Sequence record: MK327934.1
Length of the DNA stretch: 64,000 bases
Reading direction: 5' to 3' (one strand)
Source: Escherichia phage vB_EcoM_G2469
The number at the start of each line of letters is the position of its first letter. The stretch's first letter is position 1. Both the position numbers and the translations under genes were made by a program. Below are positions 9,792-14,550 of the stretch, piece by piece. The notes under the pieces were generated by a model. The model was not told where the DNA came from. It searched no databases and worked only from the letters and a program-made list of their open reading frames with translations.

Positions 9792-10418
9792 TTACTTACG
9801 AGTTTTTGCATACTGAGCAGCGTCAGCAGCCAAACGACCTGCCTGACGAAGTTTTTCTTTAATCGCATCGTGAAGTGGTTGAGTGTACTTCAAACCTTCG
9901 ATAGTCAAATAAAGACGATAAAGGTCCGGGGTATCAAGGTTGTTGATATGTTGGCCATTACGAAGAATATTGAATTCACGAACGAGTGAAGATGTATCGG
10001 ATTCAATATCACGAACAAGCGAAGATAGTTGTTTATATTTTTTTTCCAGACTAGAAGTATCAAACTTAAGAGCAGGAGCTTTAGGAGTTGCTTTTACTTC
10101 AGGCTTAGGCTCAGGTTTTGCTATTGCTTTAGGGGTCGCAGGTTTAGGAATGGAAGGAGTAGGTTTTACTTTAGGCGAACCCGATTTAGCAGAAACACCA
10201 CCACTAACAATATCTTTGAATGCTTTAGAAGCTCTGTAATATTCTTTTTGGCTGGAAGTGTCGATACCGTACATGGCTTGAACGTTTTTGAAAAACTCTG
10301 TACTAGTTTTTGTACCAGAAATAGCATCGTAAGCAGCTTGCCATTTCTCTTTTGTCATACGTACACCGGCTTCGGTGATTACTTCCGTTTCGGCTAAAAA
10401 TTCATTAAAAGTATACAT
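9792..10418 (-). CDS. CTS-bearing internal protein with Pro/Lys-rich linker (novel member)
   Basis: 208 aa; N-terminus MYTFNEFLAETE (CTS-like); PKVKPTPSIPKPATPKAIAKPEPKPEVKATPKAP linker; TATAAATA late-promoter motif 36 nt upstream. Confidence 0.65.
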   Translation of the reverse strand: MYTFNEFLAETEVITEAGVRMTKEKWQAAYDAISGTKTSTEFFKNVQAMYGIDTSSQKEYYRASKAFKDIVSGGVSAKSGSPKVKPTPSIPKPATPKAIAKPEPKPEVKATPKAPALKFDTSSLEKKYKQLSSLVRDIESDTSSLVREFNILRNGQHINNLDTPDLYRLYLTIEGLKYTQPLHDAIKEKLRQAGRLAADAAQYAKTRK

Positions 10419-10453: not shown

Positions 10454-10461
10454 TATTTATA
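10454..10461 (-). promoter_or_regulatory. T4-type late promoter (TATAAATA)
   Basis: Exact TATAAATA on minus strand, 36 nt before the ATG at 10418. Confidence 0.6.
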
Positions 10462-10465
10462 CAAA

Positions 10466-10488
10466 AAAGCCCCAACCTTTCGGAAGGG
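10466..10488 (-). terminator. rho-independent terminator
   Basis: Minus-strand RNA AGCCCCUUCCGAAAGGUUGGGGCU followed by UUUUUU. Confidence 0.75.
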
Positions 10489-10495
10489 GCTATAT

Positions 10496-10793
10496 ACCTT
10501 GTCGGGGTTCCACCTGCTAAGGCAAGTGTTTGTACGAAACGCCGGGATTCGAACCCGGTTATTAAGTAGTTGACGCTACTCAATATTTTTAAAAGGCCAT
10601 ATCTCGACCATATCCGAACGTTCCGTCAAAAACGCTACTCGGCTTACGGCAAAGATATTTCCTCGAATCGATAATTCGGTGCGCCGTTTCTGCTGTGATA
10701 TAAGGGGGCATTAACAAAACATAAAGATTTATTAATGCCAGTCCTTACTCAGGGAACATCAGTCCGACGACTTACCGGTAGCGACCCGGCTTC
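10496..10793 (-). other. non-coding region with tRNA-like 3' half (possible stable RNA or tRNA remnant)
   Basis: Perfect T arm CCGGG-UUCGAAU-CCCGG plus acceptor 3' strand at 10535..10558, but no canonical D or anticodon arms fold; 8-bp palindrome GGCATTAA...TTAATGCC at 10708..10740. Confidence 0.35.
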
Positions 10794-11138
10794 TTATTTT
10801 GGCATATCATCAATTTGCTCTCGACGCCGACGCCATAGATTAATCGCTTCATAAACACATTCTGCGTTTGGTATATGACGGCAATAATATAATGATTCGC
10901 GTTTCTGGAATCGATGTTGCAATGGGATTTCGTTTAAAAGGTCTTTACGGTCAAAGTATTCAAAACTAGTTAACCTGGAACGGTTTTTAATGAACTTCCA
11001 ATGACCAAATTCATTTTGAACATAGATGTAATCTGCATGTTGGTATAACAAATTAATCAATCGGTCTGAAATAACTGTATCATGTTCGTTAAAATAAAAC
11101 GTTAAATCATGAACTACTAAGTAAACATTACCTTTCAT
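10794..11138 (-). CDS. hypothetical protein (114 aa)
   Basis: ATG at 11138 with GAGGAAAA SD; the longer track ORF would overlap the tRNA. Confidence 0.55.
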   Translation of the reverse strand: MKGNVYLVVHDLTFYFNEHDTVISDRLINLLYQHADYIYVQNEFGHWKFIKNRSRLTSFEYFDRKDLLNEIPLQHRFQKRESLYYCRHIPNAECVYEAINLWRRRREQIDDMPK

Positions 11139-11156
11139 ATTTTCCTCACTTAAAAT

Positions 11157-11233
<77 letters not shown>

Positions 11234-11333
11234 ATGATGCGGCTTTGGGTGTTTCAGTGTTACTCGTTTGTAGGTTCTACTTTTAACCCTTATTCGAACA
11301 ACTTACCTACCTAAGAGCGTACTCACCGCGAAT

Positions 11334-11408
11334 TGGTGGCCCTGGCTGGTTTCGATCCAGCTACCTATCAGTTATGAGCTGACAGCTCTCCCATTGAGCT
11401 ACAGGGCC
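11334..11408 (-). tRNA. tRNA with CAU anticodon (Met, or Ile if C34 is lysidine-modified)
   Basis: Acceptor GGCCCUG/CAGGGCC perfect, D arm GCUC-AAUGGGA-GAGC, anticodon loop CUCAUAA, T stem GCUGG/CCAGC with unusual loop AUCGAAA, encoded CCA. Confidence 0.7.
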
Positions 11409-11470
11409 TAAATAACTTTCTATTATGAAAGGCACTTGAGGGAGCACCTTTGGTAATAGAGGGTAGATTA

Positions 11471-11495
11471 ATAATAACACATAATTCTTAAAGCA
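11471..11495 (-). promoter_or_regulatory. candidate MotA-dependent middle promoter upstream of the tRNA genes
   Basis: Minus strand reads TTTGCTTTA, 12-nt spacer, TATTAT; about 55 nt upstream of the tRNA-CAU 5' end. Confidence 0.3.
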
Positions 11496-11504
11496 AATTA
11501 CGTT

Positions 11505-11795
11505 TTACCGTACCATATTAATGTAGTTATATTCAATGCAACGTAATTTCAAAGGGTTCTTGAAAATATCATATTCAAGAGGGCCTTTTTCTGTTTCAAT
11601 AAAGAAATCAAAGTTAACTGTGTTAAATTTAACGTCTTCACAGAGTAATTTAACTTGTGAAGATGAACGGTCGATATAAACCTTTTCAACCTCAAAGATA
11701 GTCAGAATACCGTAGTCATTAACCAGTGCTTTAGCTGCACGTTGGTCGCTTTCATATCCGTTCTCAATGGACGATACTTTAGCATAAAGAATCAT
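11505..11795 (-). CDS. small hypothetical protein
   Basis: 96 aa ORF in the early region. Confidence 0.5.
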   Translation of the reverse strand: MILYAKVSSIENGYESDQRAAKALVNDYGILTIFEVEKVYIDRSSSQVKLLCEDVKFNTVNFDFFIETEKGPLEYDIFKNPLKLRCIEYNYINMVR

Positions 11796-12154
11796 GAATG
11801 TTCCACCATTTCAAAGGTATGAGCATCAACAATATGATACCAGTCAAAATTTTCTTCCGCGTTTTTATAAATTTCGCGAAGAGCTTCAACAGTTTTTCCT
11901 GTAGCAACAAGATCGTCAATACCACCAAGAGGATAACAGTAATAACCAGCAAACAGAAGGAAATTAATAGTTTCTGTAGGTTCTGGATGCAGAACACCGT
12001 TATCATCTACCACTTCAAAGAAAGTGTAAGAAGGAGTACAAGTTTTAATCCAAACCCATGCTTGGGCTGCTGAATCAAATGGTCTGCGTATCAAACGACA
12101 ATCAGGGTCTTTAGAAGGATTTGCGTCAAAATCTGCATATACATGATATTTCAT
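11792..12154 (-). CDS. hypothetical protein
   Basis: 120 aa ORF, 4-nt overlap with the downstream gene. Confidence 0.55.
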   Translation of the reverse strand: MKYHVYADFDANPSKDPDCRLIRRPFDSAAQAWVWIKTCTPSYTFFEVVDDNGVLHPEPTETINFLLFAGYYCYPLGGIDDLVATGKTVEALREIYKNAEENFDWYHIVDAHTFEMVEHS

Positions 12155-12361
12155 TTACTCACCTTTTGCAATTTTATCCATAACGATAGCGATTAAGCCG
12201 ATTAGAAATGCTACTACCAATGAGATAGAATTTTCTGTTGTTGTCAGTAGTCCACAAATGAATCCTACAAACATCGAAAAACTAAAAGCCATTGAAGCAA
12301 TTACTACAGCAACATTACGAATCAGTTCAGCGCGTTTCATTTTATTTCTCCATTTACTCAT
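12155..12361 (-). CDS. small hypothetical membrane protein
   Basis: 68 aa, hydrophobic (AVVIASMAFSFSMFVGFICGLL, LVVAFLIGLIAIV); early promoter cassette upstream. Confidence 0.5.
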   Translation of the reverse strand: MSKWRNKMKRAELIRNVAVVIASMAFSFSMFVGFICGLLTTTENSISLVVAFLIGLIAIVMDKIAKGE

Positions 12362-12409
12362 TTGTTTTGATAGGACTACTATAACATATCCCTATAGGCT
12401 TGTATACCT

Positions 12410-12673
12410 TTATTTCAAATATATTGCGTATTTTTTATAGCCACCAGGCTCGTGTCGAAGACCTTTATCATTCGCAAAACGTTGAATGTTATTGAACTGA
12501 TTTTCATCAAGTTCGGATGTGTCAAATACGAAAAAGTTTCGTTTGTTACCAAGCGTGATATGCGGAGTTAAGTCAATGTTATACAAATTAAGAATATCAG
12601 CAATAACCTGATTGACCGCTTTGTTAATTTTCACACCAGATGATTCTGAGATGAATTCGTTGAAAGTTTTCAT
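12410..12673 (-). CDS. CTS-bearing small internal protein (novel member)
   Basis: Internal ATG gives MKTFNEFISES; early promoter TTTACA-N17-TATAGT at 12706..12734. Confidence 0.55.
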   Translation of the reverse strand: MKTFNEFISESSGVKINKAVNQVIADILNLYNIDLTPHITLGNKRNFFVFDTSELDENQFNNIQRFANDKGLRHEPGGYKKYAIYLK

Positions 12674-12690
12674 TTTAGGTTCCATTTGGT

Positions 12691-12723
12691 TGTTTTGATA
12701 GGACTACTATAACATAGTCCTAT
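12691..12723. repeat. recurrent about 33-bp promoter motif TGTTTTGATAGGACTACTATAACATAGTCCTAT
   Basis: Near-identical copies at 4956..4988, 6251..6283, 12363..12395 and a partial at 9113..9136; internal 8-bp inverted repeat ATAGGACT/AGTCCTAT. Confidence 0.8.
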
Positions 12724-12734
12724 CGTGTTGTAAA
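12706..12734 (-). promoter_or_regulatory. sigma70-type early promoter (cassette)
   Basis: TTTACA-N17-TATAGT upstream of CTS ORF 12410..12673. Confidence 0.5.
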
Positions 12735-13046
12735 TTATTTTATGCCTTTAGAAGAAATGGTATTTTGGCGTTTAACCCCTGTTTGTGAAAAATCGTGGTT
12801 ATCGATTTGGTCGACTCGCATAACACCAAATGCAGATTTAATTTTAGCCTTTGAACCTTTTTTGATACTAATTATCATATAAGTATCATTTTTCTTATAT
12901 TCGAAATTTGTTACTTCAACGCCTTGATTAGAAATTGACTTAATAATAGCATTAGCGTATTCATCATCTAACGGACCGGTGGTGTTAATAATAAAATTTT
13001 TATCGGCTTTAGTAGCTTCAGCGATAAACTCTTGATAAGTTTTCAT
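12735..13046 (-). CDS. CTS-bearing small internal protein (ipI-position member)
   Basis: 103 aa; N-terminus MKTYQEFIAEA is an exact CTS; next to the 57B-like gene; promoter at 13084..13112. Confidence 0.65.
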   Translation of the reverse strand: MKTYQEFIAEATKADKNFIINTTGPLDDEYANAIIKSISNQGVEVTNFEYKKNDTYMIISIKKGSKAKIKSAFGVMRVDQIDNHDFSQTGVKRQNTISSKGIK

Positions 13047-13083
13047 TTGTTTTTTCCGTTTGGTTTGTGATTTGATATGATGA

Positions 13084-13112
13084 TAGTATCACACCATCAT
13101 CCTTATGTAAAC
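13084..13112 (-). promoter_or_regulatory. sigma70-type early promoter
   Basis: GTTTAC-N17-TACTAT upstream of CTS ORF 12735..13046. Confidence 0.5.
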
Positions 13113-13125
13113 TGTTTTGTGAAAA

Positions 13126-13811
<686 letters not shown>

Positions 13812-13815
13812 TTTA

Positions 13816-14550
13816 TTACCTTAAGATTGTTTCAATTTTAGAATAAAGCTCTTCTAAAGAGCCGTCGTTTGTAATAACTAAATCGCCTTCTTCAATAGGC
13901 AACCCAGCTTCTGTAATATGTTTATCAGTGGATTCCGTACCAGAGCGAACAACATGAATAACTGTAGCACCCATCGCTCTAGCGGTTTCCATTTCATGGA
14001 CTTGACGTGTATCGGTTACAACATAGTAATCGAAATCACTTCCAATATAATCCATATAGTTTAATGCAAAAAGCTTAACCCAATACATACGGTCAAATAA
14101 ATTAACGACAACATCCGTACCGAGGGCTTGCATAAGACGGCGGATTGACCATGTGTCGTTGATATTATTTATAGCTTCACGCAGGGCTTCATATGGTTTA
14201 ATATCTAGATACGAATATCCACCTTCTAACGATGATAATACTTTAACATTATTAATTGGTAAATATTGACTTTGCAAATAAATTAGCGCTTCTTCCAATA
14301 ATTCAATAACATCCAACTTATTGATATTTAATGGCGTTTCACGGTCATATCCGATACCTTCAAAGTATTCGTATTTCAACTCTGTGAATACATCAGGATT
14401 TTCAGCATGCCTACGTCCCCAGGCTATTGCTAGAGCGTCTTTAATTGGATATGCTAATTGGTATTTTACGGATTTAAAGTTTGAATTGATGTAATCAGCA
14501 GTAGTGTCTTTACCACTACGTTTGATGCCACTTAAAAAGATTAGCTCCAT
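13816..14550 (-). CDS. 1: deoxynucleoside monophosphate kinase
   Basis: MELIFLSGIKRSGKDTTADYI P-loop N-terminus, T4 gp1-like throughout. Confidence 0.92.
   Translation of the reverse strand: MELIFLSGIKRSGKDTTADYINSNFKSVKYQLAYPIKDALAIAWGRRHAENPDVFTELKYEYFEGIGYDRETPLNINKLDVIELLEEALIYLQSQYLPINNVKVLSSLEGGYSYLDIKPYEALREAINNINDTWSIRRLMQALGTDVVVNLFDRMYWVKLFALNYMDYIGSDFDYYVVTDTRQVHEMETARAMGATVIHVVRSGTESTDKHITEAGLPIEEGDLVITNDGSLEELYSKIETILR

Follow-up and report, generated by a model that had tools for sequence, protein, structure and literature searches.

Orthologues of T4 rnaD and rnaC in a Tequatrovirus genome: comparative structure of a tRNA-shaped phage RNA with a putative kissing loop

Downstream of the transfer RNA (tRNA) genes of Escherichia phage vB_EcoM_G2469 (sequence record MK327934.1) lies a stretch of about 300 nucleotides (nt), positions 10496-10793 of the 64-kilobase (kb) DNA analysed here, which is referred to as the window and whose coordinates are all given for the minus-strand reading. 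Judged from alignment, this stretch consists of two adjacent orthologues of phage T4 genes, rnaD followed by rnaC, and the RNAs are therefore already known and not new. RNA C, the product of rnaC, is tRNA-shaped according to its predicted structure and, by the same criterion, cannot decode, and comparison of its homologues indicates that the tips of its two inner arms form a kissing loop of six base pairs (bp). We are highly confident of the identity, anatomy and biogenesis of both RNAs taken together, a judgement from which their function is excluded.

The identity of the stretch follows from the T4 record AF158101, in which the homologous DNA carries two misc_RNA features, rnaD and rnaC, on the same strand and directly after tRNA-Arg. 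T4 rnaD ('species 2 RNA', 119 nt) spans 71171..71053, and T4 rnaC ('species 1 RNA', 139 nt) spans 71046..70908, six bases past rnaD. The rnaC gene of the window is identical to that of T4 at 138 of 139 bases, the sole change being a C for U at RNA position 66, and it scores 157.8 bits against a covariance model, R1, for which the window sequence was itself among the 7 used for building. The phage belongs to the genus Tequatrovirus: a 1,051-base stretch around the locus shares 99.8% identity with Escherichia phage FL31, and the same query matches 850 phage records, most of which are T4-like (Tequatrovirus). Since rnaC and rnaD are textbook T4 genes, their presence in a T4-like genome is expected. 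At least 80% of the flagged stretch is covered in 679 phage records; however, rnaC and rnaD are annotated at the homologous place in few of them, for example in RB3 and T4, the records of RB9 and RB59 annotate rnaC only, and in most covering records the region is blank or labelled 'hypothetical protein'.

A sequence-only reading had treated the stretch as one element, a tRNA-like 3' half that could be a decayed tRNA, a split tRNA or a small stable RNA with a tRNA-like 3' end. Its T arm (10558..10542) and acceptor 3' strand (10541..10535) are present exactly as described, as read from the sequence, and normal D and anticodon arms are indeed missing, their place being taken by a long arm of ~70 nt and a 10-bp hairpin with a 6-nt loop. 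The palindrome that it listed is real as well; it is part of rnaD, whereas the T arm is part of rnaC, so that two RNA genes have to replace the single element. The small stable RNA is the option that fits, the T arm being located in the orthologue of T4 species 1 RNA. The borders need a slight shift, as the rnaD block starts at 10797 and the stop codon of the upstream open reading frame (ORF) occupies 10796-10794, 1-3 bases past the end placed at 10793; likewise, the terminator with which the stretch was said to end exists but lies at 10491..10463, just past 10496. An alignment with other T-even phages, which had been suggested as a check, settled the identity. Also suggested were tRNA scanners and a covariance-model search of Rfam: no canonical tRNA was called here by ARAGORN or Rfam, ARAGORN reporting neither a tRNA nor a transfer-messenger RNA (tmRNA) in the flagged stretch (10496-10797), and the Rfam search, which was run, gave no family above the gathering threshold in the stretch, its only hits being tRNA-Arg and tRNA-Met further upstream. 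A permissive Rfam scan of the stretch yielded noise only, such as tRNA-Sec with 17 bits (gathering threshold 47) and isrK with 16 bits, and Rfam holds no family for either rnaC or rnaD. The parts of the two genes are as follows.

10678..10797, minus strand: rnaD orthologue (T4 species 2 RNA), ~120 nt, 88.4% identity to T4 rnaD
10774..10790, minus strand: rnaD 5' hairpin GCCGG-GUCGCUA-CCGGU with a 5-bp stem and a 7-nt loop, nearly invariant
10707..10739, minus strand: rnaD central hairpin, the palindrome GGCAUUAA...UUAAUGCC, from repeat search and folding
10672..10677, minus strand: spacer GAAUUA between rnaD and rnaC, which acts as the rnaC 5' leader; AAAUUA in T4
10533..10671, minus strand: rnaC orthologue (T4 species 1 RNA), 139 nt, tRNA-shaped, from pairwise alignment
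10664..10670, minus strand: rnaC acceptor 5' strand CGAUUCG, pairing with 10541..10535 with two U.U mismatches
10594..10663, minus strand: rnaC long arm at the place of the D arm, made up of a 3-bp AGG/CCU helix and, beyond it, a bulged hairpin of ~20 bp
10624..10629, minus strand: putative kissing hexamer 1, UUGACG, at the long-arm tip, complementary to 10575..10570
10586..10593, minus strand: rnaC A-rich single-stranded linker of 8 nt, UUUAAAAA, between the long arm and hairpin 2
10560..10585, minus strand: rnaC hairpin 2 with a 10-bp stem and a 6-nt loop, at the anticodon/variable-arm position
10570..10575, minus strand: putative kissing hexamer 2, CGUCAA, the loop of hairpin 2, complementary to 10629..10624
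10542..10558, minus strand: rnaC T arm CCGGG-UUCGAAU-CCCGG, one base past hairpin 2, read from sequence
10535..10541, minus strand: rnaC acceptor 3' strand CGUUUCG, with U10534 and A10533 after it

The minimum-free-energy fold of the 139-nt rnaC is the same as its centroid fold (-50.2 kcal/mol, z = -4.6) and agrees with the consensus fold from 7 genera. It arranges four helices round one junction, namely the acceptor stem, the long arm, the 10-bp hairpin and the T arm. The acceptor 5' strand is found 130 nt further upstream, at the 5' end of the RNA, and the acceptor stem and the T arm would be coaxially stacked as in tRNA. The sequence GGTTCGAATCC is present only once in the window, both strands counted. 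Within the linker, the flanks CCUU..AAAAAU are kept in the homologue alignment, whereas two middle positions vary.

The predicted fold of rnaC, four-armed and cloverleaf-like, is retained by 29 distinct homologues, which come from about ten genera of Tevenvirinae. In 23 aligned rnaC sequences, 93.9% of the cells are standard pairs, a share that drops to 38-47% if the partners are shifted by 1-3 columns, and changes on both sides of a pair (compensatory changes) occur in 30 of the 51 pairs; none of 500 shuffles of the 23 sequences reaches any of these measures. Compensatory changes affect 17 of the 20 pairs of helices 3 and 4 in the long arm and 7 of the 10 pairs of hairpin 2. The acceptor stem is found as CGAUUCG/CGUUUCG, CGGUUCG/CGUUCCG and CAGUCCG/CGGACUG, the last of which, carried by phiR1-RT, is a perfect 7-bp helix, whereas most genera carry two U.U mismatches. 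The T stem varies between CCGGG/CCCGG, CCUGG/CCAGG and CUUGG/CCAAG and is kept throughout, whatever the sequence of the T loop. Some T4-like contigs (L039, L060 and L063) have the T loop UUCAAGU or UUCAAAU. An alternative acceptor pairing, CGGAACG/CGUUUCG, was rejected, as one position is mismatched in EcS1 and three are in phiR1-RT, whereas the 5'-terminal strand covaries perfectly. The 96-nt 'tRNA-Phe(GAA)' that ARAGORN places over the 3' two-thirds of rnaC in EnA02 (L004 647-742) is a false call, which is explained by the tRNA-like end together with this alternative pairing.

A further feature is the predicted contact between the inner arms. Every one of the 29 distinct sequences carries, at a fixed position, two inner-arm hexamers of perfect complementarity, which take the forms CGUCAA/UUGACG, CAUCAA/UUGAUG and CGCCAA/UUGGCG (19, 7 and 3 sequences, respectively); the second form is that of Tegunavirus (the phiR1-RT clade) and the third that of Klebsiella Marfavirus-type phages. 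The kissing helix is 100% paired in the 23 aligned sequences, its two compensatory pairs arose in separate lineages and are independent of each other, and no further pair can be added on either side. Even where the central domain has diverged (L006, L100, L127 and L128), UUGACG or UUGGCG forms the exact 6-nt loop of a 5-bp hairpin. Such a kissing loop would lock the body of RNA C and leave no anticodon-like loop free. No description of it was found in the searched literature on T4-like phages, tRNA-like RNAs and kissing loops, and there is none in Rfam. The 9-mer GAGUAGCGU occurs twice in rnaC (10632-10640 and 10573-10581, minus strand), leading into each of the two loops, which hints at an origin of both hairpins by duplication.

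Homologues of rnaC extend well beyond Tequatrovirus. By sensitive BLAST, rnaC was found without rnaD in Kagamiyamavirus EcS1, Winklervirus LC53, Karamvirus EnA02 and fGh-Ecl04, Tegunavirus phiR1-RT, Gelderlandvirus ABTNLPp2, Marfavirus PWKp16 and other Klebsiella phages, whereas Mosigvirus RB69 and Dhakavirus LHE83 additionally carry, right before rnaC, a block that can be aligned to rnaD. The covariance model R1, built from 7 genera, confirmed more copies in IMG/VR and metagenome contigs; for a first IMG/VR pattern with variable gaps, 12 of 120 loci among the matches listed passed the model, most of the others being due to chance, and patterns in which no loop sequence was specified returned the same lineages only from IMG/VR and metagenomes. 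Three matches in bacterial metagenome-assembled genomes and locus L146 did not pass the model and are due to chance, and rnaD plus rnaC gave no match in 5,426 E. coli genomes. As far as these searches reach, the rnaC family thus appears to be confined to Tevenvirinae-type phages of Enterobacterales; past the range of BLAST, the searches were tied to conserved motifs, and relatives at a greater distance would escape them. A weak second match to the rnaC model (L093 1076-1188, minus strand, 20.7 bits), ~600 nt upstream of the true rnaC of that locus, holds two T-arm-like motifs, GGUUCGAAUCC and GGUUCGAGUCC, and is probably a pair of tRNAs.

In many of these genomes, rnaC is placed as if it were a tRNA gene. 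It forms a cassette of 139-141 nt that sits between tRNA genes at the usual tRNA spacing in Kagamiyamavirus, Winklervirus, Karamvirus and Gelderlandvirus, and in Tegunavirus a tRNA gene follows directly. The order in EcS1, for instance, is tRNA-Phe-CCA, AUUA, rnaC, a spacer of 8 nt and tRNA-Trp. RB69 and Marfavirus retain rnaC with few or no adjoining tRNAs. It is quite likely that RNA C represents a distinct and so far unmodelled family, whose inner arms are locked by a kissing loop and which is encoded as a pseudo-tRNA gene within the tRNA arrays of at least ten Tevenvirinae genera. The covariation-backed fold of full-length RNA C, the kissing loop and the spread as a pseudo-tRNA cassette across genera may be new. 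Deposited annotations of EnA02-like phages usually show a gap of ~150 nt in the tRNA array at the position of rnaC.

RNA D folds at -39.2 kcal/mol (z = -3.7). In an alignment of 9-10 homologues, its 5' and 3' thirds, the latter being AUCACAGCAGAAACGGCGCACC, are almost invariant in Tequatrovirus, Mosigvirus and Dhakavirus, outside of which rnaD was not found among the homologues collected. The central hairpin, on the other hand, varies freely, is replaced by another hairpin in some phages, for example in L060, and retains its pairing in T4 by means of G.U wobbles. In the window, the underlying palindrome GGCATTAA-N17-TTAATGCC extends to 12-nt arms (10707-10718 and 10728-10739, 92% complementary) and reaches -13.6 kcal/mol as RNA (z = -7.0 versus shuffles). 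Covariation speaks neither for nor against the basal helices, which are invariant, and the 5' hairpin, whose pairs are fixed save the outermost (A-U or G-U). The spacer sequence AAUUA is kept in Tequatrovirus; elsewhere, AACAA or AAUAA follows the CCA of the preceding tRNA. A pairing between the two RNAs via the rnaD loop (10778-10784; CGCUAC with GUAGCG) was considered and rejected: the two matching sites in rnaC, one in each copy of GAGUAGCGU, are both inside stems, and ~4 chance matches of 6 nt are expected between RNAs of this size.

The rnaC/rnaD pair closes the phage tRNA gene cluster; a trailer hairpin and a terminator come next. The neighbouring features are the following.

11334..11408, minus strand: tRNA-Met(CAU), called by ARAGORN and Rfam, an upstream member of the same cluster
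11157..11233, minus strand: tRNA-Arg(UCU), called by ARAGORN and Rfam, an upstream member of the same cluster
10794-11138, minus strand: ORF of 114 codons between tRNA-Arg and rnaD, PHROG 3355, function unknown, no Pfam match
10511..10528, minus strand: 3' trailer hairpin CACUUGC-CUUA-GCAGGUG, 7 bp, between rnaC and the terminator; with a CUUG loop in T4
10463..10491, minus strand: intrinsic terminator AGCCCC-UU-CC-GAAA-GG-UU-GGGGCU followed by U6, from folding

The stack of acceptor stem and T arm is the part of a tRNA that is recognised by RNase P. According to the proposed pathway, both RNAs would be co-transcribed with the tRNAs, and host RNase P would cut 5' of the acceptor stem of RNA C, thereby also freeing the 3' end of RNA D, after which exonucleases would trim both RNAs to their terminal stable helices. 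That RNA C would be cut out like a tRNA is suggested by its place in tRNA arrays, by its tRNA-like upper half and by what is known of tRNA processing. Co-transcription is also supported by the lack of a late-promoter motif on the minus strand from 10462 to 14166. The trailer hairpin could serve as a processing signal or as a stop signal for exonucleases. In T4, one primary transcript spans the eight tRNAs and the species I and II RNAs (PMC2330249), and in an omics study of T4, RNAC and RNAD were classed as late, Northern validation was reported and an RNAC probe was described (PMC9697503). The 5' end of RNA D must be made in another way in the phage studied here. In T4, F13076, JE01, L060 and L063, tRNA-Arg abuts rnaD directly, T4 rnaD starting 1 nt after it, whereas in the window the 114-codon ORF is inserted at this place, its stop codon (10796-10794) overlapping the first bases of the rnaD block (10797..10678); this end would therefore not be produced by 3' maturation of tRNA-Arg.

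With regard to function, we tentatively propose that RNA C is a non-decoding tRNA mimic, which would occupy or titrate a host or phage factor that binds tRNA, an action that would matter in some hosts only; this idea is possible, but the odds are against it. Enzymes of processing or modification and tRNA-directed defence nucleases are among the candidate factors, and RNA D may act together with RNA C. The one hint at a host-specific function comes from the T4-like phage BW-1: the only single-nucleotide polymorphism (SNP) common to three lines evolved on the semi-permissive strain ECOR34 is located in rnaD, and the virulence of the evolved lines on ECOR34 went up (RBG 0.17 to 0.98) (PMC12685909). 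The SNP probably lies in the apical part of the rnaD central hairpin, according to a rough mapping from the coordinates given in PMC12685909, which is ours and not that of its authors. The whole reading, in which the structure described above is combined with mimicry towards a host tRNA-binding factor that tunes infection in a host-specific manner, possibly with the help of RNA D, is put forward with little confidence.

Several points count against the overall explanation given here, that of identity, anatomy and biogenesis included. The RNA ends have been adopted from the T4 annotation, and at the annotated 5' end of rnaC one extra base, a U, precedes the acceptor stem. The 3' flank of rnaC is U-ACA in the window and U-UCA in phiR1-RT, not U-CCA, which occurs at the 3' end of rnaC only in Klebsiella-type phages; the flank is U-N-C-A-A throughout, and the 5' leader of rnaC is A/U-rich across genera. 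The AGG/CCU helix and four of the six kissing pairs are invariant, and covariation is silent there. The T loop is non-canonical in Winklervirus LC53 (UGCAUCC; L003 611-750) and in a related uncultured clade (UGCAUGC; L033, L137, L139 and L141), and a tRNA-like elbow thus cannot be essential everywhere. The sequence of the two loops fits kissing within one molecule or between molecules. T4 mutants in which the tRNA region is deleted grow on common laboratory hosts, and any role of the RNAs is therefore dispensable there. Furthermore, neither RNAC nor RNAD has a known role according to reviews and recent omics papers (PMC3014915, PMC9697503).

The main rival to a function as tRNA mimic is a role in cis, in which the RNAs would shield the 3' end of the tRNA precursor from exonucleases and set the order of its processing through the RNase P site that they provide; after their release they would be without a function and would accumulate merely because they are stable. 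In Tequatrovirus, the two RNAs are indeed the final elements ahead of the terminator, the T4 pair shares its transcript with the tRNAs (PMC2330249), and a processing signal would need exactly such a tRNA-like upper half. However, rnaC is found in the middle of tRNA arrays or away from tRNAs, and not at the 3' end, in five other genera, and its retention in RB69 and Marfavirus despite few or no adjoining tRNAs does not fit either. In addition, a mere end-cap requires neither a constant length of 139-141 nt nor a kept A-rich linker nor a covarying 6-bp loop contact, and a role in cis is therefore regarded as unlikely.

It is less likely still that RNA C and RNA D act as base-pairing small RNAs, whose single-stranded segments would pair with host or phage mRNAs and thereby alter translation or decay. 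The nearly invariant 5' and 3' thirds of rnaD, which flank a freely varying hairpin, would suit such a role, and the authors of the BW-1 study call the convergent SNP 'regulatory' (PMC12685909). On the other hand, no target is known, both RNAs are highly structured and offer few free stretches, and the most conserved loop of RNA C has a covarying complement in the same RNA, which argues for an internal partner. The loops might also pair between molecules, so that RNA C would assemble into dimers or closed rings. The hexamers are not self-complementary but complementary to each other, and a head-to-tail association would fit the covariation as well as the internal contact does; nothing favours it above the internal contact, however, and the constant total length and fixed loop positions in diverged scaffolds suggest a fixed internal geometry, which makes self-assembly slightly more improbable even than base pairing with mRNAs.

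The two other options of the sequence-only reading have next to no chance of being correct. A decayed tRNA gene that drifts neutrally, with the T arm as its last recognisable part, would account for the tRNA-like T arm and acceptor 3' strand, for the lack of a tRNA call by the scanners and for the 96-nt 'tRNA-Phe' that ARAGORN forces on the EnA02 homologue, but it is ruled out by the covariation of rnaC, whose sequence is conserved between T4 and the window and kept in about ten genera, some of whose 30 compensatory pairs preserve parts that are not tRNA-like across genera, and whose RNA accumulates as a discrete species in T4 (PMC9697503). A split or intron-containing tRNA, from which the ~100 nt that separate the T arm from the acceptor 5' strand would be removed to give a decoding tRNA, has in its favour that both acceptor strands and the T arm are present in one transcript, but this very arrangement (acceptor 5' strand at 10670..10664, covarying with the 3' strand) rules out a trans-split tRNA, and removal of the insert, which has its own conserved and covarying structure and matches neither an Rfam intron family nor a tRNA, would leave neither a D arm nor an anticodon arm, while the T4 record gives rnaC as a 139-nt stable RNA and not as a spliced product.

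The tRNA-shaped RNA C can be compared to several known RNAs. Like a canonical tRNA (RF00005), it has a 7-bp acceptor stem adjoining a 5-bp T stem with the loop UUCGAAU and four helices at one junction, and its gene is found in tRNA arrays; unlike a tRNA, it is 139 nt long, lacks a D arm, an anticodon arm with a 5-bp stem and a 7-nt loop, and a free anticodon, and is not called by ARAGORN or by Rfam RF00005, for which 29 bits are needed. In tmRNA, the acceptor stem and the T arm are formed from the ends of a longer RNA with a non-tRNA middle, which is processed by tRNA enzymes, and RNA C too has an acceptor stem and a T arm that are formed from its two ends. It is, however, much shorter than tmRNA and lacks the alanine pair G3:U70, having A3-U70 or G3-C70 instead; neither ARAGORN nor Rfam called rnaC as a tmRNA, and no search was aimed at a tag reading frame or a resume codon. 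The mascRNA of MALAT1 and the tRNA-like parts of the TMERs of murine gammaherpesvirus 68 are non-decoding tRNA mimics whose release and stability depend on RNase P/RNase Z-type processing. Their likeness to RNA C, which might be followed up as a lead only, extends to functions that are likewise unclear; they differ from it in being eukaryotic or herpesviral, ~60-70 nt long and cloverleaf-like, without a loop-loop lock and without any sequence relationship.

For the contact between the loops, the TAR-TAR* complex of human immunodeficiency virus (HIV) and the RNA I-RNA II complex of ColE1 provide models, in which loops of 6-8 nt pair over six bases, the stems not being included, as is predicted for RNA C. 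In TAR-TAR*, loops of 6 nt can pair completely. In RNA C, both loops are part of one RNA, and the contact is probably internal.

The closest relatives remain the T4 genes themselves. T4 rnaC follows the same strand logic and has the same neighbours, with rnaD upstream and the trailer hairpin and terminator downstream; the terminator of the window is weaker and its trailer shorter. T4 rnaD has the same conserved ends and the same length of spacer, 6 nt, before rnaC, whereas its central hairpin differs at several positions, the pairing being retained.

The function of RNA C and RNA D is a question of about 50 years' standing. Handles for mutagenesis and pull-downs are provided by the complete acceptor stem, the arrangement of four arms, the putative kissing loop with its covariation and the position within tRNA arrays in many genera. 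The comparative structure would justify an Rfam family, which would put an end to the annotation of rnaC genes as 'hypothetical protein' or as false tRNAs.

Some differences were noted in the rest of the cluster. It contains two tRNAs (Arg UCU and Met CAU) compared to eight in T4, segB is absent between tRNA-Arg and tRNA-Met, and tRNA-Arg has the same anticodon as in T4 but a quite different sequence. The terminator of the window combines a GC-rich stem of 6 bp, a 2x2 internal loop of U.U mismatches, two further base pairs, a GAAA loop and U6, whereas that of T4 (L001 about 2830-2860) has a perfect 9-bp stem with a GAAA loop. A simple terminator scan reported none at the locus, as the stem has two U.U mismatches. 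The T4 trailer has an extra small hairpin, which is absent in the window. The late-promoter motif TATAAATA was found neither on the minus strand between 10462 and 14166 nor directly upstream of rnaD or rnaC, the nearest minus-strand sites being 10461..10454, past the U tract of the terminator, and 14173..14166. The former (10454-10461) precedes the next minus-strand gene, 9792-10418 (PHROG 2280, function unknown), and the motif is enriched in the window, with 20 sites observed compared to 7.7 expected.

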